Below are positions 4,842 through 62,601 of a stretch of 64,000 nt of DNA, one piece after another. The notes under the pieces are model-generated. The model worked only from the letters and a program-made list of their open reading frames with translations, ran no database searches and was not told the DNA's origin. Source of the DNA: an uncultured Alphaproteobacteria bacterium (GTDB lineage: Bacteria > Pseudomonadota > Alphaproteobacteria > RF32 > CAG-239); contig CANRJO010000002.1 of the NCBI GenBank assembly GCA_947630965.1, positions 5,038 to 69,037 on the forward strand. The letters are read 5' to 3'. Position numbers and translations under genes: made by a program. How positions within the stretch are numbered: the first letter of the stretch is position 1; each line of letters starts with the position of its first letter.

Positions 4842-5201
4842 ATGATTATCAATAGTAATGATAAGTTACAAAGAAACATCTTGACCAACAAGTGTTTCTA
4901 CCAAACTACCGCTCAAATTATGCGCGATTTTGAGCAGAAGGGCTATGCCAACTCTGCCGATGAAACCGCTAAAGTAATTACTGCTTATCATGCCCTTGTT
5001 CAGAAAAAAACTAAAAACAACTACAGCAAAGATTATAATGAAGCTTTCGGCAAAATAGATAATGCCATTCGGAATATGGCGAACAAAGTTTTTTATACCT
5101 ATGATAAAGAAAGCTTTGATTATGCTTATCACTCCTTCCAAAATTTTGATTATATCAATGCCATTATCGGGCGGCAACGTATGAAAAAGCAAAAGCCTTA
5201 G
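4842..5201 (+). CDS. Hypothetical protein (119 aa)
   Basis: Intact ORF between uvrC and a gpsA-like gene. No recognisable motif. Its AT-rich upstream region is consistent with a promoter. Confidence 0.35.
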   Translation: MIINSNDKLQRNILTNKCFYQTTAQIMRDFEQKGYANSADETAKVITAYHALVQKKTKNNYSKDYNEAFGKIDNAIRNMANKVFYTYDKESFDYAYHSFQNFDYINAIIGRQRMKKQKP

Positions 5202-5292: not shown

Positions 5293-6255
5293 ATGAAACA
5301 AATCTCTCTCATTGGGTGCGGGCGTTGGGGCACGTTTTTAGGTTGGTATGCCGCCAACTATTGTGTTGACCAAGTTTTACTTTACGATATTCCGACATCA
5401 CCGAATTTTATTGAGCTTAAAGAAACGCGCAAAAACGCCTATTTAAGCTTAAGCGACAATATGTATTTGAAAGAGAAAATTGCCGATGTTTTAGAATCAG
5501 ATGACATCATCATCTCTATCGGATGCCAACATTTGAGGAGTTTGGCGCGTGAGCTCAATGGTTATAATTTGGCGGGCAAAAACTTTTTACTCGCGATGAA
5601 AGGGCTTGAGGAGCCGAGCGGCACCATTTTGGTTGATGTATTCCGCCAAGAAGTTAAGCAAGATGTGCATGTGGCGTGCCTTGGCGGCCCGGGTCATGTG
5701 CAGGATTATATGAAAAAAGTGCCCTCTTGCGCTGTGATTGACAGTTATGAAGAGGCGGCTAAAGAACATTGGATTAATTTGTTGCAAAGTGATCTCATCC
5801 GTTTTTATTACGGCAATGACGTGATTGGCAATCAGATTGGGGCGGCGCTTAAAAACGTAGTCGGTCTTGCCGCCGGCATTTTAGACGGTTTAGAGTGGTA
5901 TGGTCTTAAAGGCGCTTTAATGGCGCGCGCGCCTGTTGAAGTTGGGCGCTTTATCAAGCATTATGGCGGCAACCCGCTTTCAGCGTATGGCTTGGCGCAT
6001 TTAGGCGATTATGAAGCCACGCTTTTTTCAAAGCACAGTCACAACCGCATGTATGGCGAGATGTTTGCCAAAGGCGAGCGTTTCGGCAAGCTTGCCGAGG
6101 GTGTGCCAACGCTTAAAGCGGTTAAGCTGATTGCTGATAAGGAAAATATCGATATGCCGATTTGCCAGATGCTTTATAAGGTGATTTATGAAGAGGCAGA
6201 GATTAAGGAATCGATTAGGGTGCTATTTGATCGTTCCCTAAAAAGAGAATTTTAA
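5293..6255 (+). CDS. NAD(P)H-dependent glycerol-3-phosphate dehydrogenase family protein (divergent GpsA-like)
   Basis: N-terminal Rossmann motif ISLIGCGRWGTFLGWYAA. The length of about 320 aa and the overall layout are typical of GpsA. A GAGG RBS lies upstream. Confidence 0.55.
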   Translation: MKQISLIGCGRWGTFLGWYAANYCVDQVLLYDIPTSPNFIELKETRKNAYLSLSDNMYLKEKIADVLESDDIIISIGCQHLRSLARELNGYNLAGKNFLLAMKGLEEPSGTILVDVFRQEVKQDVHVACLGGPGHVQDYMKKVPSCAVIDSYEEAAKEHWINLLQSDLIRFYYGNDVIGNQIGAALKNVVGLAAGILDGLEWYGLKGALMARAPVEVGRFIKHYGGNPLSAYGLAHLGDYEATLFSKHSHNRMYGEMFAKGERFGKLAEGVPTLKAVKLIADKENIDMPICQMLYKVIYEEAEIKESIRVLFDRSLKREF

Positions 6256-6280
6256 GGAAACCCATCTCATGGGCGCCTAG

Positions 6281-6357
6281 AGTGATTTTTTGCTCAAAAG
6301 TGTCCTCATGTACCTTTTACGTACACTCCGGTACTTTTGAGCAAAAAATCACTCTAA
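6281..6357. repeat. Palindromic repeat element A (~77 bp, ~22-bp perfect inverted arms)
   Basis: agagtgattttttgctcaaaagt...acttttgagcaaaaaatcactct. Copies also occur at 43140-43215 and 61881-61953. Each lies just 3' of a gene end. Confidence 0.8.
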
Positions 6358-6369
6358 TCACCTCATTAT

Positions 6370-6915: not shown

Positions 6916-7009
6916 TTTTTCAACTCCTTTGCTTTTTCAATATCTTTGCTTTTAAGAGCTTAGATGTCAAGTTTTTTATTTTTGTATGACGTTGGGTGTG
7001 TCCGCCCCG

Positions 7010-7129
7010 ATACGTCACTCTGAGCGGAGCGAAGAGTCCAGGAGGAAAAACGAATCAAATTGTCATGCTGAACTCGTTTCAGCATCTTGTTTATGAGATC
7101 CCGAAACAAGTTCGGGATGACAATAAGGA
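7010..7129. repeat. Composite of small palindromic elements: type F (cgtcactctgagc…agagtccagga) followed by type E (two adjacent hairpins gtcatgctgaaYtcgtttcagcatc and atcccgaaacaagttcgggat)
   Basis: A near-identical E copy is at 24991-25052. F-like copies are at 24935-24973, 37497-37587, 44858-44897 and 62491-62530. Confidence 0.75.
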
Positions 7130-8479: not shown

Positions 8480-8635
8480 TTTGTTTTCCTTACGTTTTTA
8501 ACTTTTAATTAACTTTTTAGGCAAAGAAAACCCTTATCTCCCTCTTGTCCACAAGAATCTCTTTCCTAAAACCGGCGGTTTTAAATAGAATCGAGAGGGT
8601 GAGGTGTTTCGGGAATGATAATATGATTCAATTTT

Positions 8636-8675
8636 TCCTGGATCCTTCACTGCGTTCAGGATGACGGAGGGAGGG
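8636..8675. repeat. Short repeat element D (cctggatccttcactgcgttcaggatgacgg)
   Basis: Further copies at 25069-25105 and 25623-25660. Variants at 54483-54520 and 62546-62601. Confidence 0.7.
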
Positions 8676-24579: not shown

Positions 24580-24595
24580 CTGGCAGGGGAATGCG

Positions 24596-24900
24596 TCTAA
24601 TGGACGATTCATCGTTCAAAAAGAGGATTTGAAATTCACGTACGCTTAAGGTCTTACTCGTAAGGGTTGCCAGAAATGGCAACCCTAACTCGTTTCGGTC
24701 ACTTGCTTTGTAAAAGTTGTATCGGTCGTTATCACTTCCTCACAACTTTAACAAAGCTACGCCGCTTGTGGTAAAAACAACCCGTCGGGGTTGTTTTTAT
24801 CCTCGCGCGCTAAAATTCCAAATCCTCTTTTCTCACTTCTACTCGCCTCATTATCCGCATTCCCGCGGACTATGAAAAAAAATAAGAATTAGTTTTTTAT
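24596..24900. repeat. Repeat element C (~300 bp); second copy at 43255-43560
   Basis: Long stretches near-identical to 43255-43560, for example ctaactcgtttcggtcacttgctttgtaaaa… and ttaacaaagctacgccgcttgtggtaaaaacaacccgt.ggggttgtttttatcctcgcg.gctaaaattccaaatcctcttttctcacttctactcgcctcattatccgc. Both copies lie directly after the stop of a +-strand gene (aspS, fabG). Confidence 0.8.
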
Positions 24901-25362
24901 CCTCATTCCCAAGGACTATGAAATAGCCTACTGACGTCATTCTGACGACCGTAGGGAGGAAGAATCCAGGTGGAAATAAATTCATCCTTATTGTCATGCT
25001 GAATTCGTTTCAGCATCTTCCTTATGAGATCCCGAAACAAGTTCGGGATGACATTTTGATTTCTTTTTTCCTGGATCCTTCACTGCGTTCAGGATGATGT
25101 TGTGTGCCTGTTGGCGTCTTGGAAGCAACTTCACGCGTGATGTCATAAAAAAATACTTGCAAAAATCAGATTTTTATTTAACATAAACCCTGCCGTCGTT
25201 GGGCGGTGGTGTTCACAAAACATCTTTACCAACTAAACTCCTTGTTAAGGGGAGTTTCCGATATAAGGCTTTTGCTCGAATAAGGAAAACTGACAGTTGG
25301 CAGTTTTGTGGCTCCCCACCTTTTTTATAAAGGTGGTTTTCTTTAACCTCAAGGAGCTGAAA

Positions 25363-25614
25363 ATGAAAATAAAAAACAAAGATCTGACACTTTACATCAA
25401 AAAAACAATGATGACGCTTTTTCGTGAAGAACGTATTAAAAGGGGCGAAACTCTGGAACAAACGGCGCGTAAAATCAACATTCCGCTTTATGAACTTGAT
25501 TTCTTGGAATGCGGAAGAGGCTGTATTTCTTGGAAAAAAATGATTGATTATTTAGAAATGTACAATAAAACGCTTAAAATTACTTTAGAAGACGACCCCG
25601 ATGAAAGTAGCTAA
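25363..25614 (+). CDS. Small HTH-like protein (putative XRE-type regulator), copy 1
   Basis: Start reassigned to the internal ATG at 25363, preceded by AAGGAG with 7-nt spacing. The segment LFREERIKRGETLEQTARKINIPLYELDFLECG resembles an XRE helix-turn-helix. Confidence 0.5.
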   Translation: MKIKNKDLTLYIKKTMMTLFREERIKRGETLEQTARKINIPLYELDFLECGRGCISWKKMIDYLEMYNKTLKITLEDDPDESS

Positions 25615-25915
25615 TTTGTTGCCCTGGATCCTTCACTGCGTTCAGGATGACGGACGGAGAGGGTTGCCACCATAGCAAGCTAACAATCGCGTGATGTCAT
25701 AAAAAAATACTTGCAAAAATCAGATTTTTATTTAACATAATCTCTGCCGTCGTTGGGCGGTGGTGTTCACAAAACACTTTTCTAGTAAACTCCTTAAATA
25801 AGGGGAGTTTCCGATATAAGGCTTTTGCTCGAATAAGGAAGACTGATTACTAGCAGTTTTGTGGCTCCCCACCTTTTTTATAAAGGTGGTTTTCTTTAAC
25901 CTCAAGGAGCTGAAA

Positions 25916-26176
25916 ATGAAATTAAAAAACAAAGATCTGACACTTTACATCAAAAAAACAATCATGATGCTTTTTCGTGAAGAACGCCTCAAAAGGGGCG
26001 AAACTCTGGAACAAACGGCACGCAAAATTGATATTCCGCTTTATGAACTTGATTTCTTGGAATGTGGGAAAAATTGCCTTTCTTGGCGCAAAATGATTGA
26101 TTATCTAGAGATGTACAATAAAACGCTTAAAATTACTTTAGAAGACGACCCCGATGAAAGTACCAACGACTTTTGA
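25916..26176 (+). CDS. Small HTH-like protein (putative XRE-type regulator), copy 2 (paralog of 25363-25614)
   Basis: Same RBS and start context at 25916. About 85% identical to copy 1. Followed by a hairpin terminator. Confidence 0.5.
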   Translation: MKLKNKDLTLYIKKTIMMLFREERLKRGETLEQTARKIDIPLYELDFLECGKNCLSWRKMIDYLEMYNKTLKITLEDDPDESTNDF

Positions 26177-26234: not shown

Positions 26235-26591
26235 TTATTCAACTGCAGGACTTCCATCAGCTTGATATACCGTTGTTATATCATCTTCTGTTGTTAGCAT
26301 GTAGCTGCCGTCAGCATATACATCGCAACACTTCAGGTTATCCGCAACCAACGAGCCATCCTCCCGATATAACGCCACGCGATCCGTTGCTTCCAACTTA
26401 TACCAACCGTTGGCATAAACATGTTTTTTAAAAAACTTGTCTATCAGAAGTGTTCCGTCAGGCCGATACATAGACCAACCATCCTCGGTTTCCAACATGT
26501 AGTAACCATTTTCAAAAATGTACTTTTGCTTAAATAACAAGTTGAAAAGCTCGCGCAAGTACCATCCGATTTGTTTTAAAATAGTTTTCAT
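26235..26591 (-). CDS. NGWY-repeat protein (three 33-aa repeats), member 1 of a tandem paralog array
   Basis: N-terminus MKTILKQIGWYLREL…. Repeats of the form C.V(Y/F).NGWY.L.T..G.ALYR.D.SLVAD.L. No signal peptide. Confidence 0.5.
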   Translation of the reverse strand: MKTILKQIGWYLRELFNLLFKQKYIFENGYYMLETEDGWSMYRPDGTLLIDKFFKKHVYANGWYKLEATDRVALYREDGSLVADNLKCCDVYADGSYMLTTEDDITTVYQADGSPAVE

Positions 26592-26662
26592 AATTATTAT
26601 TTTTTAAGGATTAAACAAAATAATTTTTTTCTAAAGAATATATTATTTTCTTTTTAGAAAGA

Positions 26663-26705
26663 AATCAACAAAAAACCTCCGAATACACCAAGTATTCAGA
26701 GGTTT
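26663..26705 (-). terminator. Rho-independent terminator downstream of the 251-aa NGWY-repeat gene
   Basis: Minus-strand sense: cctctgaatacttggtgtattcggagg followed by ttttttg. Confidence 0.6.
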
Positions 26706-26720
26706 TTGTTTTAAAAACGC

Positions 26721-27476
26721 TTACTCCATTATTAAAAATAAGGAACCATCATCCCGATAAAATGCCGTGCCGTCCGCCGTTGTGACTACAGACAAGCCTT
26801 TGCGCTGAATATGGCAATTTTGTATTTTATCAGCAATCAAGGCCTCATCAGCACCATACAAAGCTCTGTTCTCCGGCGATTCTAGAAGGTACCAACCGTT
26901 TTTGTAAACAAAGCAAAACAACAAATTATCAGCAACTAACGACTCATCTTTCCGATACAAAGCCATACCTTCTTTTGACTTTAATTGATACCAACCGTTC
27001 AAATAAACATCGCAATGCTTGAGTTTATCCGCAACCAAACTTCCGTCTGCGCGGTACAAAGTCGTGCCTTTCTTTGTTTGCAGAAAATACCACCCGTTAT
27101 GAAAAACATGGCAATCTTCCAAATGATCAGCAACCAAAGACTCATCAGCTTGATACAATGCAAAAGATTTATCTGTTTTCAGTTTATACCAACCGTTGTC
27201 AAAAACTTGGCACTTTTTCAGTTTATCGGCAACAAGCGAATCATCGGCGCGATATAATGCGGTTCCGTTTGCCGTTTCTAACGCATACCAACTGTTTGGA
27301 TAAACGTCACAATCTTTTAACTGATTGGCAACCAAGGAGCCGTTTTTGCGGTATAAAGCATTGCCACAAGCCGAGCGCAACATGTACCAACCGTTATCAA
27401 AAATGTACCTGTGTTTCAAACATACGTGGTAAAACTTACGTAAGCGCCACTGAATTTTTTTCAAAATAGTCTTCAT
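26721..27476 (-). CDS. NGWY-repeat protein (about seven 33-aa repeats), member 2
   Basis: MKTILKKIQWRLRKF… followed by about seven tandem 33-residue repeats, each with a single Cys, NGWY, ALYRADxSLVAD. Confidence 0.55.
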   Translation of the reverse strand: MKTILKKIQWRLRKFYHVCLKHRYIFDNGWYMLRSACGNALYRKNGSLVANQLKDCDVYPNSWYALETANGTALYRADDSLVADKLKKCQVFDNGWYKLKTDKSFALYQADESLVADHLEDCHVFHNGWYFLQTKKGTTLYRADGSLVADKLKHCDVYLNGWYQLKSKEGMALYRKDESLVADNLLFCFVYKNGWYLLESPENRALYGADEALIADKIQNCHIQRKGLSVVTTADGTAFYRDDGSLFLIME

Positions 27477-27616
27477 AATTATTATTTTTTAGGATTAAAC
27501 AAAATAATTTTTTTCTAAACAATATATTATCTTATTTTTAGAAAAAATCAATAAAAAAGCGTCTTCGAATAAAAAAACTCCGGATACCGATGTAACCGAA
27601 GTTTTAAGCTTTTGCG

Positions 27617-28177
27617 CTAATAATCTCTTTCTAACAACATGCCGTCAGATCGGTATAAAGCACGACCTTTTTTCGTTCTTACTTCATACTTTCCGTCAGC
27701 GTAAACATCGCACCACTTTAGTTTATTGGCAACAAGCGATTCATCAGCGCGGTATAATGCAATTCCGTTTGCCGTTTCTAATGCATACCAACCGTTGTCA
27801 TAAACATTGCACCAATTCAACTTATCAGCCACAAGCGATTCATCGGCGCGGTATAATGCGGCTCCGTTTGGCGTTCCCAACTCATACCAATTGTTGTCAA
27901 AAAGATTGCACCAGTTCAAATTATCAGCAACAAGCGAATCATCGGCGCGGTATAATGCGGTTCCATTTTTCGTTCCCAACTCATACCAATTGTTAATCCA
28001 AATATAGCAATAAGTCAATTTATCCGCAACCAAACTTCCGTCAGATCGGTATAAAGCCGTTCCGTTTGGCGTTCTTATAAAATACCACCCATTTTCAAAA
28101 ACATACCTGTCCTTTAAAAAATAGTCATGATAAAGCTTGCGCAAATGCTGCTTAATCTTTTTCAAAATAGTTTTCAT
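27617..28177 (-). CDS. NGWY-repeat protein (about five repeats), member 3
   Basis: Start reassigned to the conserved MKTILKKIKQHLRKL. The ORF track begins 8 codons earlier. The upstream leader is conserved with members 1 and 2. Confidence 0.5.
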   Translation of the reverse strand: MKTILKKIKQHLRKLYHDYFLKDRYVFENGWYFIRTPNGTALYRSDGSLVADKLTYCYIWINNWYELGTKNGTALYRADDSLVADNLNWCNLFDNNWYELGTPNGAALYRADESLVADKLNWCNVYDNGWYALETANGIALYRADESLVANKLKWCDVYADGKYEVRTKKGRALYRSDGMLLERDY

Positions 28178-28385
28178 AATTTTTATTTTTTTAATAATCA
28201 TACAAAATAATTTTCTTTCGGGGCGGATGTTAGCATCTTTTTTATGGAAATCAACAAAAAAATCCCAAGCAATACTAAAATGCAGCTCTTGGAATAAAGC
28301 TGTTACGTATTTATTGACTTATTTGGGCATATTTGGTAACATTTGAAAAAGCATTGTTCATATTGGCTTTATAAAATTATTCAGA

Positions 28386-37374: not shown

Positions 37375-37757
37375 AAAATAACCTTAAGCGTTTACAATCA
37401 GGCACTTTTTACAATTAATAGCTTTCGCTACACCGGCAAACAATGAAACAACAAAAACAAAATATATTTCTTTCCATTCCTTGCGTCTGCCTGCTGATGT
37501 TATTCTGAGGCGAAACTGAAGAATCTAGGTGGAAAATATAGCTCATTTGTTGTCCTGGACTCTTTGCCTATGGCTCAGAGTGACGGTTTGGAGTGTGTTT
37601 TACTCCTTTCCCGATGTTCGAGGTTGGCGAATCGATCAAAAAAAGGGTACCTTTAAATTGCTATATCAGAGCAACAAAAAACGTCCATTTTGAAATGGAC
37701 GTTTTTGTTAAGAACGATATTTTTTTCTAGCTTCTTATTCTTGCGGTTGCTTTCCGA

Positions 37758-43113: not shown

Positions 43114-43139
43114 TAGGGAAAGGCGTCTAGCTGGCACCT

Positions 43140-43215
43140 AGAGCAATTTAAGGGGAAAAAGTGTCCTCACGTACTTCTTATGTACGCTGCGGTACTTTTT
43201 CCCCTTAAATCACTC
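43140..43215. repeat. Palindromic repeat element A copy, immediately after the fabG stop
   Basis: aatttaaggggaaaaagtgtcctcacgtac…gtacgctgcggtactttttccccttaaat: a long inverted repeat whose core gtgtcctcacgtac…cgtacgctgcggtac is shared with 6281-6357 and 61881-61953. Confidence 0.75.
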
Positions 43216-43254
43216 TATCTGCACACGCTATCCACCTTTCCTTCGGTTTTGGAA

Positions 43255-43560
43255 CGCGTCTAATGGGCGATTAATCGTTCAAAAAGAGGATTTGAAATTC
43301 ACGTACCATTAATGGTCTTACTCGTAAGCTTTGCGCTTAACGCAAAGCTAACTCGTTTCGGTCACTTGCTTTGTAAAACCTGCCACGGTCGCTACCGCTC
43401 CCTAGCAGTTTTAACAAAGCTACGCCGCTTGTGGTAAAAACAACCCGTTGGGGTTGTTTTTATCCTCGCGTGCTAAAATTCCAAATCCTCTTTTCTCACT
43501 TCTACTCGCCTCATTATCCGCGTTCCTACGGCTTAGGTGCAAAAAATAAGGATTTTTTTT
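43255..43560. repeat. Repeat element C copy (~300 bp), paired with 24596-24900
   Basis: Near-identical to 24610-24880, including ttaacaaagctacgccgcttgtggtaaaaacaacccgttggggttgtttttatcctcgcgtgctaaaattccaaatcctcttttctcacttctactcgcctcattatccgcg. Confidence 0.8.
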
Positions 43561-43690
43561 ATCCGCGTTCTCGCGGCTTGGGATAAAAATAAGGATTTTT
43601 TTTATCCGCGTTCCCACGGCTTGGGATAAAAATAAGGATTTGTTTTTTATCCGCGTTCCTGCGGCTTGGGGATAAATTATAAAAAGGCAT
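43500..43690. repeat. Tandem array of ~44-bp direct repeats (about four copies) at the 3' edge of element C
   Basis: Unit atccgcgttcNNNcggcttgggataaaaataaggatttttttt occurs at ~43515, 43560, 43603 and 43648. Two degenerate copies are at 24845-24930. Confidence 0.75.
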
Positions 43691-43713
43691 TCTAACGGTT
43701 ACGTTAGAATGCC
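43675..43713 (-). terminator. Rho-independent terminator downstream of the OMP gene
   Basis: Minus-strand sense: ggcattctaacgtaaccgttagaatgcc followed by tttttataattt. Confidence 0.6.
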
Positions 43714-43777
43714 TTTCTTCTCTATAAAGGAATTTATTGACTAACAAATACGATTAATAATAAAAACCTTTCCTACT

Positions 43778-44488
43778 TTAGAAAGCGTAGCTTAAACCAG
43801 CCCGCACGCCATTATAAACTTGCGCTCTCGTTTGGTTATCTATCATGGGGTTGTTGGGATTGCGGTTGTATGTAGGACGTTTCACATCAGCCGTGTTTCC
43901 GGAGAATTGGTATGCAGCAAAAACACCAACGTTTTCCGTCACATCATAACGAAGACCGATTTCAGCTGAATAAGCCAATCCCCAAGCAGAATCGTCCACT
44001 TTTGTATTGTAAAACTCATCTGGTGCGTCTGATTGTGTTGACTTGTATTTCAGGTAAGCAACGCCCGCATTTACACCGGCAAAAGCTTTGAGCTTGTCTT
44101 GATAGACAGGTATGCTATAACGATATCCCGGCATGATGCTGAACAATTCAACTTTGTCTTTAACGCTAGTTGCTTCTCCATCGATATTGATTGAATCATC
44201 ACCTGCGGCGTATCCGAAACGCAATGTTAAAGCTTGCTTATCCGTTAAATTATAAACGCCCGTGACATCTGCCGAAATAAGATCAACTTTAGGCATTGAC
44301 AAGTTTGAACGATAAATATTTTCACCATTGCTTGCCATCGGTGATTTCTGAAATTCTCTGGCGGCAAATTGATAACCACCGGCTAATTCCACAGACCATG
44401 GATTTGTTGTTACAGAATTTGCTTGCGCAGTTGCGGCAGAAGTGACAATCGCCACGAAGGCTGTTGTTAATAAAAGATTGTTTTTCAT
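43778..44488 (-). CDS. Outer-membrane beta-barrel protein (OmpA/OmpW-like small OMP)
   Basis: Start reassigned to the ATG at 44488 (MKNNLLLTTAFVAIVTSAATAQA signal peptide) with a GAAAGG RBS. The track starts at an upstream TTG. Alternating amphipathic strands and a C-terminal …GLSYAF aromatic terminus. Confidence 0.6.
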   Translation of the reverse strand: MKNNLLLTTAFVAIVTSAATAQANSVTTNPWSVELAGGYQFAAREFQKSPMASNGENIYRSNLSMPKVDLISADVTGVYNLTDKQALTLRFGYAAGDDSINIDGEATSVKDKVELFSIMPGYRYSIPVYQDKLKAFAGVNAGVAYLKYKSTQSDAPDEFYNTKVDDSAWGLAYSAEIGLRYDVTENVGVFAAYQFSGNTADVKRPTYNRNPNNPMIDNQTRAQVYNGVRAGLSYAF

Positions 44489-44830
44489 ATGATAGAACCT
44501 TTCTTTTTTCAATTGTTAAAAAGAAAACCACCTCAAAAGGTGGCCGGAGAGTTCAACAATCATATTACTCAAAATGATTCCTTTAGCCTTTAAAGCCATA
44601 TCAGTATGTCTTCTGGACATTCGCTAAAAGCTCCCCGACCATATGAATATGAATCGGGGATATATCTACTGTCAGCTAAAATTCATAGCTGACAATATGA
44701 CGACATTATATCCTAACGCCGTGAGTAATATTGAGCCGTTGAAAGCTCCGTACCTCTTGGGTACTAAGCATAAAAACTTTTTATGCCTGAAAGTACTGTA
44801 AGATATTATTTAGCGAAATGCAAGGAAAAA
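44489..44830 (-). promoter_or_regulatory. Conserved ~300-nt structured 5' leader of the OMP gene, paralogous to 54111-54430
   Basis: About 90% identical to the leader of the autotransporter gene. Contains several hairpins (tgtcagctatgaattttagctgaca; tccccgattcatattcatatggtcgggga; ccaccttttgaggtgg followed by ttttcttttt). Confidence 0.6.
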
Positions 44831-44904
44831 TTTACAAATGTGTGTAATGAATAATTTGTTGTCCTTGACTCTTCGCTGAAGTTTAGAGTGACGGACGGTG
44901 CCTT

Positions 44905-45303
44905 TTATCGGCAGCCGTTGCCGCGCCATTGCCATGAGGTGATGATGCCGTCTTTAATCCAAAACTTGGTCTGGCAGACTTCTTGCACCTGATTATCCGT
45001 GATGATGGCTTCGGGGCCCATTTGCGCCTCGCCCATAATCGGGTCTAGAAGCACGTTTTCTTCACCCCATCCATCGTTATAAAAATAATACTCTGAGGGC
45101 ATATACCAGTCTTGCACGCGCGTATATGTAATGACGGATTCATTGGCGTTAATATACTGACGCATGCTCGGGCGTCCCCACGCGCTTATGAGCGAAGCCT
45201 CACTTTGCCCTACCCATTGTTTGAGCTTGTTATCATAAGTTTGTGTGTTGGCGCACGCCAACAAAAGCAATGTAAAAATCAGTCCGAAAACAACCTTACG
45301 CAT
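44905..45303 (-). CDS. Putative lipoprotein (132 aa)
   Basis: MRKVVFGLIFTLLLLAC: signal peptide with a lipobox (LLAC). No further homology recognised. Confidence 0.45.
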   Translation of the reverse strand: MRKVVFGLIFTLLLLACANTQTYDNKLKQWVGQSEASLISAWGRPSMRQYINANESVITYTRVQDWYMPSEYYFYNDGWGEENVLLDPIMGEAQMGPEAIITDNQVQEVCQTKFWIKDGIITSWQWRGNGCR

Positions 45304-50979: not shown

Positions 50980-51028
50980 ATAAACAAAAAGAGAGGATGA
51001 GTTATTGCACGAACTCACCCTCTTTTCT
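50980..51028 (-). terminator. Rho-independent terminator downstream of the autotransporter gene
   Basis: Minus-strand sense: gagggtgagttcgtgcaataactcatcctc followed by tctttttgttt. Confidence 0.55.
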
Positions 51029-51065
51029 CTATAAAGGAATTTAGAATAATATTTATGTTCTAAAA

Positions 51066-54000
51066 CTAGAACTTGTATTTGGCTGAGAGAATGCCGCTAT
51101 GATCTTCGAAATCTTTGCGGAACTTGCCTTCATAGCCGGCGGAAATATCCCAACTTTCGTTCAAGGAAGCTGTTAAGCCAACACCGGCTTCAACGCCAAA
51201 GCGTTCTAAGCTCTCGCCTTCAACCCGGTAGGAGCTGCTACCGACATTGACAACGGCGCTGTTATCGCCATCCATCAAGTCGTAGGTCACGCCCAAGCGT
51301 GCTTCAGGACGGAGGCTGATGCCGTTGTCAAACGCCACTTCTTTGGACGCTTTCACATCGGCAACCGCGGTCAAGATGTCTTGATCTTCGGCTTTCACAC
51401 GCTGACCTGCCGTGTCTGTGTAGGCTTCCTGATCAAGGTGTGCATAACGCAAACCAATTTCAGGTGTCACGTTCACGCTGCCTGCCAAGGCTTCATAGCC
51501 TGTCATAGCTTGCAAGCCGAAGACATCAACGTCATACTTGCCGCTGAAACCGCCTAACAAGCTGCTCTTCTTTTCTTTGTACTTAGACATACCATAAGAA
51601 GCAATGCCGTTGACATACCAGTTGCTCGGCTTATATTCGCCATAAAGCATAAAGGTGTGCGAATCGACATCAATATCGCGGTGATGACCGTCAATTTCCG
51701 TATCGCCATAAGCATAAGCAACACCGAGTTTCACGTTATCTGCCACTTCATGATGTGCACCAAAAGCAACGCCTTTTGTCTTGGCATCAAAACCTTTTGC
51801 CTCAGACATATCGTCAACGGTGGACTTGTTAAACAAAGCTTTCACCCAAACAACAGCCTTGTCAAACACGCCGTCGCCCGAAGATTTTCCGGCGGAAGCT
51901 GTGTCAATGCTGTTGGTGCTCAAGTTTGCGCTTACAGCGCCATAGGCGTGAGCCAATTGGTTGGTTTCAACTGTTTGAACGACAGGTGCGAAAGCCGGCG
52001 CCACGTCTTCAGCAAGTGCGGCAACGGTGTTTACATCGTGCTTTTGCAGATGTTCATACATGAAATCATGAATCTCTTTGGCTTTGCCATCCAGATTTTT
52101 CTCTAAGGCGAAAGCGCTCATCGCATTGGAAGCGTTTTCACCCGCACCGGCTTCTTGAGCTTTGGAAGCAATTCTTTCCGCCGAGTTCTTTGAGGCAACG
52201 ACTTGATTGCCTTCAACATTCAAATCATAAAGAACGTTTTCAGCGTGAAGTTTGCTCTTCTCGCCTTTCAAGAGTTCGTCTGTTACGACCTTGCCAAAGT
52301 TAAGCGCTTGGCCATCAATGACGTCACCGGCTTCTTCAGTAACATAAAAGTCAAGTGTGGCATTGCCATTTACGGTTAAATTGGCATAATCATCTTCATC
52401 GGATCTGATTTTACCGTTCACAAGAATGTCATTGTCAGCTTTTTCAACATCAACATGTAAGACGGAGCCATCCTTTAACGTTACGGCGCTGTCATATGTA
52501 CTTGTGCCTAGGTCAAGTGTGCCTGCAACGGCTGTTTTGGCAATGTCGTAATATGCGTCATCCACATGGAGCGTGGCATCCTTTTGGATTACAACTTTAT
52601 TGGCCGTGAATAGTTTTGTATTGTCTAGTGTGAACTCATGGCCGCCTGTGACAGTCATTCTCTTAAGCTCTGCTTTGCCACCAAAGAGACTGCCTGATGA
52701 GGTGTCGGCATTGATGTTTAAGTCTTTCAACAACCCACCTTCTGCAGTTTCCTGAATGGATTTAATTTTAGCTTCGGCTGAGTTGACGTTGATTGTGCCG
52801 ACATTTTCACCACCTATGATGCCGTCAATCTCGCCTTCAAGGTTTATAACAGCATCTTCATCATCCAATGTGAACGTTGATTTATTGATCGATTTCATCA
52901 CGCCGCCTTTTTTGACATTAATGGTGGCATTTTCAATGAACATATTGCCTTTATCATTCTTAGCTGTTCCGTCGCCTAAGGCGCCTTGTAGAAGCATACC
53001 GCCATCATCAATGGTAACCTCGGCACCATCGATTGTGTTTTCATCATCATAACCTGCAATATAGGCTTTGTTGCCATCGGCATCAGTGCCACCAATGTAA
53101 ACTTTAGTACGAATGATGCCTTTATCATCCGTATCGCCGTCAATCGTAAAATCAACGGCATCAATATTGGCGCCGTTCTTGACGGAAATGGTGTCGAGAT
53201 CATTTAGGAGAATTGTACCGCTTTCAACAGAGGCATCGTTATTATCATGTGTGTGAACGGCCACAATTCTTGCGCCATTTTCCAAGCTTATATTGCCACC
53301 ATCAACAGTAATGGTAAAATCTTCATCTCCTTTTGCTCTCTCAGTACTCTCTGTATGTGTGTCTCGACCTAACCAGCCACCATCAGAGTGATAATTTATG
53401 TTTTTCAATTCTAAATTATAAGAAGCAACCACTTTACCTTTATTTTCAATATTGGCGCCGTTCCCTTGACCTGTAATAATGAGGGGAGCAAGGCCCACAT
53501 ATTTTTGATCATCCGTGGTATTTGTCCCGTTACCGCCGTAAATCAGGTGGTCACCTTCTTCAAAGGTCAACGTTTTGTTTTCTGAAATATCTAAATAATG
53601 AGCAGTACCGTTTTTGGGTTTATTATTATACAAATAAATGTTGGTGCCATCTGCCATTTCGACATTGCCGACTGTCAGAGGCTTTCCTTTCTCTTCATTA
53701 TTTGGGTTTGAATTTTGACCAATAATAAGCTCACCTTCCGTAATGCCGGAAGTGCCTTTTTCAATCCGGAGATCAATGCCGCTTAAGTCAACACCTTTAA
53801 GGTCTTTCCACTTTTCTACGCCGGATTTAATACCGTCAACGGTTAAATAACCTTGCACGGTCATTTTATGTCCGCCTGTTAATTTTGAGCCATCATGAAC
53901 TGTAACCCAATGCCCTAACGTGACATCGTTTTCTACCTTAACGTCTTCACCGTTAATGTTAATGCGCGCACTTGAACTGTCGTGACTTGTTACATCACTT

Positions 54001-54110
54001 TCAACAATCAATGATGTGTAGTCATTCTTTGCAGCTTCTTCTGCTTGCGCATTTGAAACCGCAAAGGCGACACTCACGAGCGCTGTTGTTAATAAAAGAT
54101 TATTCTTCAT
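51066..54110 (-). CDS. Autotransporter (type Va) outer-membrane protein with a beta-helical passenger
   Basis: Signal peptide MKNNLLLTTALVSVAFAVSNAQA. A long Gly/Asn/Asp-rich passenger with repetitive beta-strand motifs. A C-terminal ~280-aa beta-barrel ending …LSAKYKF. Confidence 0.75.
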   Translation of the reverse strand: MKNNLLLTTALVSVAFAVSNAQAEEAAKNDYTSLIVESDVTSHDSSSARININGEDVKVENDVTLGHWVTVHDGSKLTGGHKMTVQGYLTVDGIKSGVEKWKDLKGVDLSGIDLRIEKGTSGITEGELIIGQNSNPNNEEKGKPLTVGNVEMADGTNIYLYNNKPKNGTAHYLDISENKTLTFEEGDHLIYGGNGTNTTDDQKYVGLAPLIITGQGNGANIENKGKVVASYNLELKNINYHSDGGWLGRDTHTESTERAKGDEDFTITVDGGNISLENGARIVAVHTHDNNDASVESGTILLNDLDTISVKNGANIDAVDFTIDGDTDDKGIIRTKVYIGGTDADGNKAYIAGYDDENTIDGAEVTIDDGGMLLQGALGDGTAKNDKGNMFIENATINVKKGGVMKSINKSTFTLDDEDAVINLEGEIDGIIGGENVGTINVNSAEAKIKSIQETAEGGLLKDLNINADTSSGSLFGGKAELKRMTVTGGHEFTLDNTKLFTANKVVIQKDATLHVDDAYYDIAKTAVAGTLDLGTSTYDSAVTLKDGSVLHVDVEKADNDILVNGKIRSDEDDYANLTVNGNATLDFYVTEEAGDVIDGQALNFGKVVTDELLKGEKSKLHAENVLYDLNVEGNQVVASKNSAERIASKAQEAGAGENASNAMSAFALEKNLDGKAKEIHDFMYEHLQKHDVNTVAALAEDVAPAFAPVVQTVETNQLAHAYGAVSANLSTNSIDTASAGKSSGDGVFDKAVVWVKALFNKSTVDDMSEAKGFDAKTKGVAFGAHHEVADNVKLGVAYAYGDTEIDGHHRDIDVDSHTFMLYGEYKPSNWYVNGIASYGMSKYKEKKSSLLGGFSGKYDVDVFGLQAMTGYEALAGSVNVTPEIGLRYAHLDQEAYTDTAGQRVKAEDQDILTAVADVKASKEVAFDNGISLRPEARLGVTYDLMDGDNSAVVNVGSSSYRVEGESLERFGVEAGVGLTASLNESWDISAGYEGKFRKDFEDHSGILSAKYKF

Positions 54111-54430
54111 ATGATTGAACCTTTCTTTTTAATCAATTGTTAAAAGAAAACCACCTAAAGGTGGCCGGAGAGTTCAACAATCATACATCAGTAAATGATT
54201 CTTTTAGCCTTTCAGCCTAAGCTTTGGACATTCGCTAAAAGCTCCCCGACCATATGAATATGAATCGGGGATATATCTACTGCCGGCTAAAATTCATAGC
54301 TGACAATATGACGACATTATATCCTAACGCCGACTGATGTTGAGCCGTTGAAAGCTCCGTACCTCTTGGGTACTAAGCATGAAAAAAGCTCCATGCCTGA
54401 AGGTACTGTAGGATATTATTTTAGAAAATG
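54111..54430 (-). promoter_or_regulatory. Conserved ~300-nt structured 5' leader of the autotransporter gene, paralogous to 44489-44830
   Basis: Near-identical to 44513-44820, including the leader hairpin ccacctttaggtgg followed by ttttctttt about 35 nt upstream of the ATG. Confidence 0.6.
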
Positions 54431-54678
54431 CAAGGGGAAAATTTAGGGAATGTGCATGATGAGTAATTAGCTATGTTTTTTGTCCTGGATCTTTCACTTC
54501 GTTCAAGATGACGTACCGAGGCAGCCGCTCCTTTCTTATCCAAGTTTCGACAAGGTGGAGAACCGTTTAGATAGAGTGAAAAATAAAGCGGTAAAAATTC
54601 TAGCGTACTAAAAAAGGTACATGAATTTTGCGAGACCCGAAAAAACGGCTTTAGATGCGCCGCTATACGTCTTTCCAC

Positions 54679-61660: not shown

Positions 61661-61737
61661 GGCGGACGTAGCTCAGTTGGTAGAGCCCCGGTTTGTGGTA
61701 CCGGTTGTCGTGAGTTCGAGCCTCATCGTCCGCCCCA
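61661..61737 (+). tRNA. tRNA-His (anticodon GTG) with an encoded G-1 and an encoded 3' CCA
   Basis: Cloverleaf: extra 5' G, acceptor GCGGACG/CGTCCGC, D-arm GCTC-AGTTGGTA-GAGC, anticodon arm CCGGT-TTGTGGT-ACCGG, T-arm GTGAG-TTCGAGC-CTCAT, discriminator C plus CCA. Confidence 0.85.
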
Positions 61738-61770
61738 GATTATTTTTTTTGTTTTTTAAAAACATCCTTT

Positions 61771-61846
61771 GGGGCTGTAGCTCAGTTGGGAGAGCGACAG
61801 GTTCGCAATCTGTAGGTCGTGGGTTCGATCCCCATCAGCTCCACCA
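61771..61846 (+). tRNA. tRNA-Ala (anticodon CGC) with a G3:U70 pair and an encoded CCA
   Basis: Acceptor GGGGCTG/CAGCTCC with G3:T70, D-arm GCTC-AGTTGGGA-GAGC, anticodon loop TTCGCAA, T-arm GTGGG-TTCGATC-CCCAT, discriminator A plus CCA. Confidence 0.85.
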
Positions 61847-61880
61847 ATCCTAAAACACGTATAGCAGCGCATCTAGCGCA

Positions 61881-61953
61881 ATTTTTTGCTCAAAAGTGTC
61901 CTCACGTACGTCTATGTACGCTGCGGTACTTTTGAGCAAAAAATCACGCTATC
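61881..61953. repeat. Palindromic repeat element A copy, just after tRNA-Ala
   Basis: aattttttgctcaaaagtgtcctcacgtacg…cgtacgctgcggtacttttgagcaaaaaatcacgct. Confidence 0.75.
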
Positions 61954-62030
61954 TACACTACTCTCCGTGTTTTATATTTTCTATTACATTTGCGGACATT
62001 TTTTATCTGGTGTTCGCTGTGGGGGTCTAG

Positions 62031-62490: not shown

Positions 62491-62601
62491 ACGTCACTCT
62501 GAGCCATAGGCGAAGAGTCCAGGACAACAAATTAGCTATATTTTCTCCTGGATCCTTCGCGAATGCCCTTCAGGCAAAGCTCAGGATGACGGACGGAGAG
62601 G
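62491..62601. repeat. Type F plus type D small palindromic elements, immediately upstream of the Cys-rich gene
   Basis: acgtcactctgagccataggcgaagagtccaggacaac (F) followed by cctggatccttcgcgaatgcccttcaggcaaagctcaggatgacggacggagagg (D variant with an internal insertion). Confidence 0.7.

Follow-up and report, generated by a model that had tools for sequence, protein, structure and literature searches.

Two near-identical leaders in the window

We examined a 64,000-nt stretch of contig CANRJO010000002.1 (assembly GCA_947630965.1, forward-strand positions 5,038 to 69,037) from an uncultured alphaproteobacterium, here called the window, in which two genes carry almost the same long 5' leader. The genes are as the initial annotation described them: one encodes a 236-amino-acid (aa) outer-membrane protein (OMP) of the OMP_b-brl type and the other a 1014-aa autotransporter, and a signal peptide is common to both. 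The parts of the two leaders, read on the gene strand, are listed in Table 1; their order is identical in the two copies.

Table 1. Genes, leader parts and flanking features of the two copies in the window (RBS, ribosome-binding site; MFE, minimum free energy)
Feature	Position	Strand	Basis or remark
Copy 1, downstream gene (236-aa OMP_b-brl)	43778-44488	minus	
Copy 1, exact 18-mer AAATTCCTTTATAGAGAA in 3' flank	43718-43735	minus	
Copy 1, promoter-like -35 hexamer TTGCAT	44818-44823	minus	sequence
Copy 1, promoter-like -10 hexamer TACAGT, 17-nt spacer	44795-44800	minus	sequence
Copy 1, P0, 5'-proximal hairpin AGGCAUAAAAA...UUUUUAUGCUU	44766-44788	minus	MFE fold; helix 1
Copy 1, P0b hairpin GUACC-CAAGA-GGUAC	44750-44764	minus	helix 2
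Copy 1, P1 5' strand GGAGCUUUCAACGGCUCAAUAUUACUCA, including the variable 6-bp inner segment	44722-44749	minus	helices 4-7
Copy 1, variable P1 segment AUAUUACUCA/UGAGUAAUAU	44722-44731 + 44562-44571	minus	
Copy 1, P2a hairpin, near-invariant loop GGAUAUA	44701-44721	minus	helix 8
Copy 1, P2b hairpin UUGUCAGCU...AGCUGACAG	44669-44695	minus	helix 9
Copy 1, P3 hairpin UCCCCGAU...GGUCGGGGA, 3' strand GGUCGGGGAG (candidate antiterminator strand)	44632-44660	minus	helix 10
Copy 1, P4 GCUUUUAGC / GCUAAAGG, variable-length distal hairpin	44580-44631	minus	helix 11
Copy 1, P1 3' strand UGAGUAAUAUGAUUGUUGAACUCUCC	44546-44571	minus	fold and family alignment
Copy 1, CUCUCCGGCC, common to P1 base and terminator stem, complements P3 3' strand	44542-44551	minus	
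Copy 1, intrinsic terminator GGCCACCUUUUGAGGUGG + UUUUCUUUUU	44518-44545	minus	terminator scan
Copy 1, RBS (AAAGGU, 44497-44502) and ATG (44486-44488) of the OMP_b-brl gene	44486-44502	minus	
Copy 2, downstream gene (1014-aa autotransporter)	51066-54110	minus	
Copy 2, exact 18-mer AAATTCCTTTATAGAGAA in 3' flank	51025-51042	minus	
Copy 2, promoter-like TTGCAT (54428-54433), 17-nt spacer, TACAGT (54405-54410)	54405-54433	minus	
Copy 2, structured RNA body	54167-54398	minus	fold and 95.4 bits with R1
Copy 2, P0	54375-54398	minus	
Copy 2, P0b	54359-54373	minus	
Copy 2, P1 5' strand	54333-54358	minus	
Copy 2, variable P1 segment ACAUCAGU/ACUGAUGU	54333-54340 + 54185-54192	minus	
Copy 2, P2a	54312-54332	minus	
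Copy 2, P2b	54280-54306	minus	
Copy 2, P3	54243-54271	minus	
Copy 2, P4	54201-54242	minus	
Copy 2, P1 3' strand	54167-54192	minus	
Copy 2, intrinsic terminator GGCCACCUUUAGGUGG + UUUUCUUUU	54142-54166	minus	terminator scan
Copy 2, RBS (54119-54124) and ATG (54108-54110) of the autotransporter gene	54108-54124	minus	copy 2 lies between 54433 and 54108

Comparison of the two upstream regions with blastn aligned 44489-44856 with 54111-54468 at 85.8% identity across 373 positions (E 1e-114), close to the 90% over some 300 nt first estimated, and a central block of 108 nt (44614-44721 against 54225-54332) was 98% identical. The similarity begins about 30 nt 5' of the promoter-like site (TTGCAT-17-TACAGT), passes the start codon and ends about 23 codons into the gene, with the shared signal peptide MKNNLLLTTA...AQA. 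The unit copied in the window thus comprises promoter, leader, RBS and signal-peptide codons, in agreement with the earlier suggestion of a shared promoter module, and since the signal peptide lies within it, two unrelated mature proteins have promoter, leader, RBS and export signal in common. The 3' flanks had also been called similar, and we found the same exact 18-mer in both, with only these two matches in the window and none expected by chance. It lies 42 nt past the OMP stop codon and 23 nt past that of the autotransporter, directly preceding two terminator hairpins that are otherwise unrelated to each other.

The leader RNA is about 270–290 nt long, with a P1 helix of about 25 bp that closes a multi-helix core of P2a, P2b, P3 and P4. 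The four hairpins named in the initial annotation are all present on the minus (gene) strand. One of them, the CCACC/GGTGG hairpin by the RBS, is better described as a classical intrinsic terminator with a U-tract that stands 5' of the RBS (hairpin energy in copy 1, -10.3 kcal/mol), so the control point is likely to be transcription termination and not masking of the RBS. P4 carries a conserved internal loop (CG.AUGU.CA / AAAGG). The inner segment of P1 differs between the copies on both strands with complementarity kept.

Exactly two copies were detected in the window by blastn, by nhmmer and by a core covariance model run with filters off. This model (R1) covers a 95-position core, not the full-length element; it gave 98.4 bits for copy 1 and 95.4 bits for copy 2, and the next match in the window reached 16.9 bits. 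Both copies fold far more stably than shuffled sequence (z = -7.5 and -7.3, respectively). The same leader occurs at 99–100% identity before the same OMP gene in three independent assemblies from other samples, with the neighbours kept (RodA, a 132-aa open reading frame (ORF), OMP and FabG); therefore, the locus is no assembly artefact.

A widespread family in gut Alphaproteobacteria

The initial annotation proposed a search for the leader elsewhere in the genome; our search of other assemblies and metagenomes recovered a widespread family. An exact 21-mer of the core was present at 20 loci in 18 assemblies of uncultured gut Alphaproteobacteria (metagenome-assembled genomes, MAGs), including 'Acetobacter sp. 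46_36', Candidatus Scatocola faecigallinarum and Rhodospirillaceae RUG769, while a degenerate 27-nt core pattern matched at least 120 metagenome loci, mostly from human gut and rumen. With nhmmer on the collected loci, we identified at least 147 copies in gut and rumen Alphaproteobacteria MAGs and metagenomes. These 147 copies included 108 distinct full-length sequences, and 76 were left after collapsing at 97% identity. Two other long contigs (152 and 215 kb) carry two copies each.

The same leader was found upstream of a relative of the OMP with 85% aa identity. Two contigs of that species (L002 and L004) end 221 nt before the OMP start codon, that is, inside the leader, as expected of a repeat. 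The 3' arm of L004 differs from that of L002 before the same gene, and the leader is a practical cause of contig breaks, and of possible mis-joins, in assemblies of these genomes. No leader was found upstream of a more distant OMP homologue (L005, 63% aa identity); therefore, the element is not tied to this OMP family. A divergent copy (L008:3330-3600, minus strand) has only the P3–P4 core in common with the family (50 bits with R1) and combines it with different flanking helices and its own promoter-like site and terminator. This copy adjoins a gene with phage tail-collar and YadA-stalk domains.

The element is a previously uncatalogued RNA family with no match in Rfam 15. A scan of the window at the Rfam gathering thresholds returned only two tRNAs, a scan of 44400-44950 at E<=10 only scattered chance matches (13–22 bits), and a scan of 17 divergent copies at E<=1 nothing on the element. 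The core sequence was likewise not found in searchable full texts or in the 200 supplementary files searched. Table S4 of Fremin & Bhatt 2021 (PMC8040213) lists a candidate cis-regulatory structured RNA, HMP2_1648, located 5' of 8 autotransporter genes, from a screen of human-microbiome intergenic regions. This is the only possible earlier record of our leader that we found; if it is the same RNA, it is listed there and not analysed.

Conserved structure, covariation and strand

RNAalifold on 18 sequences predicted 65 pairs, 17 of them with compensatory changes. We then used the 76 sequences, in a plain MAFFT alignment that was not fitted to any structure, and obtained a consensus of 12 helices and 72 pairs in which 93.8% of the cells are paired. 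The covariation across homologous leaders that the initial annotation had asked about is present, as 41 of the 72 pairs change on both sides. The covariation score was 0.375, against 0.169 in column shuffles (0 of 500 reached 0.375) and 0.07–0.09 in controls with the partners slid by 1–3 columns.

All helices have several covarying pairs, apart from the P3 and P4 stems, which are nearly invariant. In particular, 6 out of 7 pairs change on both sides in P0, 3 out of 4 covary in P0b (86.8% paired), 4 out of 7 in P2a (96.4% paired) and 6 out of 7 in P2b. P3 is 98.7% paired and has a single covarying pair (C-G to A-U in 11 sequences), while P4 is 99.8% paired with three. The terminator stem (helix 12, 96.2% paired) also has three, including A-U to G-C in 8 sequences and C-G to U-A in 5.

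The structure belongs to the gene strand. The alignment contains 641 G.U cells against 78 A.C cells (8:1), and therefore the structure is selected on that strand. The opposite strand pairs in 83.2% of the cells, and the score of the covariance model falls from 98 bits on the gene strand to 15 bits on its reverse complement. Invariant G.U pairs occur at several positions (e.g. columns 98/317, in 73 of the 76 sequences), and P1 contains some of them. We have next to no doubt that this is a genuine structured RNA, conserved and strand-specific.

The inner 6 bp of P1 (alignment columns 116-121 / 305-310) are copy-specific, with all four Watson-Crick pair types at each position and 54 distinct hexamers among the 147 copies. 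Unlike the other helices, this segment hardly departs from Watson-Crick pairing, with G.U in about 1.6% of cells. One hexamer recurs on divergent scaffolds before unrelated genes, and one gene has different hexamers across assemblies. A code for gene function was rejected, as we found no association between hexamer and gene. The two P1 arms do not match on three contigs (L026, L089 and L129); this and the shuffling of hexamers may have arisen when copies recombined, or when chimeras were assembled across the conserved core.

A pseudoknot between the P2a loop (GGAUAU) and an AUAUCC in the junction before P3, which would be a second alternative pairing, has no statistical support, and we keep it as a lead only. 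Its positions are 91.8% paired, no better than in shuffles, and a control slid by -2 columns equals it because of an AU repeat. One clade has GGAAUA with UAUUCC at these positions.

A repeat acting at the DNA level, with no RNA function, would be a miniature inverted-repeat transposable element (MITE) or repetitive extragenic palindrome (REP)-like element, a duplicated promoter cassette or an invertible promoter segment. Several features would fit such a repeat: the element occurs in multiple scattered copies, its P1 arms form inverted repeats, other dispersed repeats are frequent in the window, contigs often break inside the element (L002 and L004), and the arms fail to match on the three contigs named above. 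However, the excess of G.U over A.C cells runs against it, the invariant G.U pairs of P1 would be mismatches in DNA, and covariation extends to eleven further helices. Orientation and distance to the ORF are fixed, which is not the behaviour of a MITE or REP; all 147 copies were collinear with the model, without inversion or splitting, and the promoter-like site is not enclosed by the P1 arms, unlike in an invertible segment. We saw no terminal duplications and no association with transposases, and assembly across a conserved core of about 150 nt may explain the non-matching arms. A repeat of this kind is thus very improbable.

Placement of the leader and its downstream genes

We found a TTGxxx-16/17-TAxxxT site ending 0–5 nt before the element start, just 5' of P0, in about 45 of the 76 representatives. 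Some 7–12 nt separate the -10 hexamer from the beginning of P0. All through the family the terminator is retained; the terminator scan recovered it in both window copies, and the RBS and start codon follow about 30 nt 3' of it. Downstream sequence was sufficient for 140 copies, and in 134 of them an ORF of 60 aa or more on the same strand starts no more than 60 nt past the end of the match (median 29 nt). The leader is thus not one of the generic dispersed repeats at non-genic sites that the initial annotation had allowed for. This spacing leaves no room for another promoter, and the downstream gene would consequently depend on read-through of the terminator.

Two other features of the leader were rejected as functional candidates. 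An internal TATAAT in the P2a loop was considered as the real promoter, but it falls in a structured loop and is replaced by TATAAC or another variant in most members, and we prefer the upstream site. A leader peptide was also considered, as copy 1 contains a 21-codon ORF that begins at ATGCTTAGT; its start codon is missing in other clades.

The downstream ORFs fell into 33 unrelated clusters. Autotransporters (PF03797) were by far the most represented (47 copies), followed by proteins with a type IV prepilin-like N-terminus, GRSMIEMLGVLAI (16 copies, read from the sequence and with no Pfam match). PD-(D/E)XK nuclease-like proteins (PF14281), XRE-type helix-turn-helix (HTH) regulators and OMP_b-brl porins were present in 7 copies each, a 66-aa protein in 6, a secreted SNase-like nuclease in 5, GT2 glycosyltransferases and YspA/SLOG-like proteins in 3 each, and DXD-sugar glycosyltransferases in 2. 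Lipoproteins followed several copies. A GatB-like ORF and an IS200-type transposase-like ORF occurred once each, both recognised by their N-terminus only, and the latter, which lies 130 nt 3' of the leader, is not among the 33 clusters. The list is dominated by surface and secreted proteins. The part of the initial annotation that described a conserved leader stands, as a structured and strand-specific 5' leader, while its restriction to OMP genes does not, given at least 33 unrelated gene families downstream.

The same placement bears on whether the element is instead a multi-copy small-RNA gene of about 270–290 nt with its main role in trans, for example within a ribonucleoprotein or as a base-pairing regulator; the downstream genes would then use leaky read-through, or the released leader would be a second product with a dual function. 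This reading would account for the element's own promoter-like site and strong terminator, for the extreme conservation of both paired and unpaired positions across distant hosts, for the L008 copy that has no adjacent ORF, for the many copies per genome (two in the 64-kb window and two on each of the 152- and 215-kb contigs), and for a terminated fold that is strongly favoured. We nevertheless consider it unlikely, since 96% of the copies have a co-oriented ORF at a tight distance with no room for a promoter, and since the copied unit contains the RBS and in places the signal peptide.

A candidate transcription attenuator

We regard a riboswitch-like leader that acts in cis by transcription attenuation as the best reading, and a reasonably probable one; its function is inferred from conserved structure and position. 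Among the forms of post-transcriptional control that were proposed initially, 'riboswitch-like' remains the best available description, while an RNA thermometer or a small-RNA target site is less apt.

The leader would be transcribed from its own sigma-70-like promoter as the 5' part of the downstream mRNA, with a transcription start that we place near P0. In the default, thermodynamically favoured fold, P1, P3 and the terminator would form and halt transcription. In the alternative state, the P3 3' strand would pair with CUCUCCGRCC, which comprises the end of P1 and the first four bases of the terminator stem, and would so disable the terminator. An effector (a small molecule, a protein or a factor associated with RNA polymerase) would shift the balance between the two folds and make termination conditional. 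Placed before numerous genes of a genome, most of which encode surface or secreted proteins, the same sensor would co-regulate them.

The complementarity that this switch would use is present across the family. The P3 3' strand is invariant except for one substitution, and its 10-bp alternative helix with CUCUCCGRCC is paired in 97.9% of the cells of the 76 sequences, with one covarying position (G-C to U-A in 7 sequences). That position belongs to a concerted triple change: where P3 goes from CCCCGA/UCGGGG to CCCAGA/UCUGGG, the third partner goes from CCGACC to CCAGACC or CCCAGACC. The third partner is changed in 10 of the 11 sequences with a changed P3 (7 in register and 3 one alignment column off). 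This concerted change suggests that the complementarity between P3 and the terminator is that of an antiterminator. The terminator bases common to the alternative helix (GRCC) are nearly invariant, as expected of sequences that serve two pairings, while the remaining stem covaries. The calculated energies of copy 1 (-102.6 kcal/mol for the terminated fold and -85.7 kcal/mol for the forced alternative) are consistent with a default OFF state.

Several observations weigh against this attenuation model. Nested-structure folding, which cannot evaluate pseudoknotted arrangements, puts the alternative helix at a disadvantage of 17 kcal/mol. P1, at about 25 bp, is stable alone, unlike the short P1 of typical riboswitches. 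The covariation in the alternative helix may be a single evolutionary event, and one sequence (L067) breaks this helix. The divergent copy L008:3330-3600 lacks an adjacent ORF, and the downstream genes (XRE, PD-(D/E)XK nuclease, GatB-like, IS200 transposase-like and surface proteins) are too heterogeneous to give a clear clue to a ligand.

The length of P1 also fits a constitutive leader without an effector switch. Such a leader would stabilise the mRNA or enhance expression through its 5' hairpins, or it would be a processing module in which a cut in the long, perfect P1 duplex (e.g. by RNase III) releases the mRNA and a stable core RNA. P0 begins within a few nt of the predicted transcription start, the variable P1 segment is nearly pure Watson-Crick, and many of the downstream genes encode abundant surface proteins, all of which would suit this explanation. 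However, a stabiliser could do without a near-invariant sequence of some 230 nt and without a conserved, covarying U-tract terminator directly before the RBS, and the triple change of P3 and the terminator flank is left unexplained under either variant. We assign a constitutive leader a low probability, and retain the attenuator as the preferred reading.

Significance

A broader proposal, which we put forward as speculative, is that the leader represents a new class of riboswitch or of leader that modifies RNA polymerase, in which one sensor, in perhaps tens of copies per genome, gates the surface and secreted repertoire of an order of uncultured gut Alphaproteobacteria. If so, the gated genes would encode autotransporter adhesins, porins, type IV pilin-like proteins, lipoproteins, glycosyltransferases and a secreted nuclease, and the sensor would detect a signal for which no sensing by RNA is known yet. 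A second layer of control, addressed to individual copies (for example through processing or the specificity of pairing), might come from the strictly Watson-Crick 6-bp segment of P1.

It is now rare to find a large structured leader that is missing from Rfam despite more than 100 examples and clear covariation, and such leaders are a source of new riboswitch classes and signalling molecules. In a widespread, uncultured group of Alphaproteobacteria from the human and animal gut, the leader would couple adhesin, porin and pilin expression to that of surface-glycan enzymes, and it could explain how these bacteria remodel their surface in the host. It could also be used as a regulon marker, or as a compact promoter-leader-terminator module for synthetic biology.

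Other repeats in the window

A short palindromic dispersed repeat with the core CCTGGATCCTTCACTGCGTTCAGGATGA lies directly 5' of both leader promoters (44853-44895 and 54459-54520). It was also found at the intergenic positions 8612-8664, 25045-25097, 25598-25650, 7004-7051, 37545-37586 and 62492-62534, and could be a REP-like element, or a terminator or insulator for the upstream gene. From fabG to the end of the OMP gene, 660 nt of non-coding sequence (43114-43778) consist of repeats: three tandem units of about 44 nt at 43514-43679, blocks at 43251-43545 that are 87–92% identical to 24588-24882, and blocks at 43114-43224 in common with 6253-6363 and 61869-61958, the latter located just 3' of two tRNA genes (61662-61843). 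Finally, we found a 553-nt tandem duplication (25134-25545 / 25688-26098, 91–96% identical) and, at 26318-28266, clustered repeats with a 99-nt period, together with three AT-rich upstream regions that resemble one another (26546-26679, 27431-27563 and 28132-28266). The regions 25134-26098 and 26318-28266 together suggest a paralogous gene array with shared 5' regions.

Comparison with known systems

The 5' untranslated region (UTR) of E. coli ompA is an mRNA stabiliser of about 130 nt, single-copy and without a terminator. Like our leader, it is long, structured and located before a gene for an abundant OMP, and the hairpin at its extreme 5' end would have a counterpart in P0 if transcription starts where predicted; it differs in lacking a terminator and a family-wide conserved core. 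Processive-antitermination leaders include put of phage HK022 and EAR of Bacillales, and those dependent on NusG paralogs are RfaH/ops, LoaP and UpxY. They work in cis on terminators and precede long surface-structure or accessory genes, as our leader would; however, they have no sequence or structure similarity to our leader, which is far larger than put or EAR and is followed in many cases by short single genes.

T-box leaders share with it a length of 200–300 nt, many copies per genome, a scaffold that carries a short copy-specific segment and, under the attenuation model, terminator/antiterminator logic. In our leader this segment is a paired 6-bp helix and not a single-stranded specifier, there is no T-box motif, the genes are unrelated to amino acids and the phylum is different. 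T-box RF00230 gave no match in 44400-44950 (E<=10) or in the 17 divergent copies (E<=1).

The regulons of c-di-GMP (cyclic di-GMP)-I and -II riboswitches comprise pili, adhesins, OMPs, glycosyltransferases and phage genes. The spectrum of adhesin, pilin, OMP and glycosyltransferase genes, the multiple copies and the terminator-based platform are alike in our family, while the leader is much larger and shows no match in sequence or structure: the GEMM-I and c-di-GMP-II consensus had no match at E<=10 in 44400-44950 or at E<=1 in the 17 divergent copies. We found no GG[DE]EF motif in ORFs of at least 150 aa across the window and 145 loci (1.07 Mb, a redundant and small sample), which slightly weakens c-di-GMP as the effector; c-di-GMP signalling may be scarce or missing in these reduced gut Alphaproteobacteria.

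Transcription-terminating riboswitches, including orphan candidates, share the general plan of our leader. They differ from it in that the leader has no Rfam 15 match, a P1 of about 25 bp against 4–8 bp, and heterogeneous downstream genes. In both, P1 closes a multi-helix domain in the 5' leader, an intrinsic terminator follows directly, the 5' half of this terminator has its complement in a strand of the domain, and several copies occur per genome. Two features by which riboswitches are recognised are present in our family: a covarying structured domain, and a sense-strand 5' leader position that is supported by the ORF spacing, the promoter-like site and the strand asymmetry.

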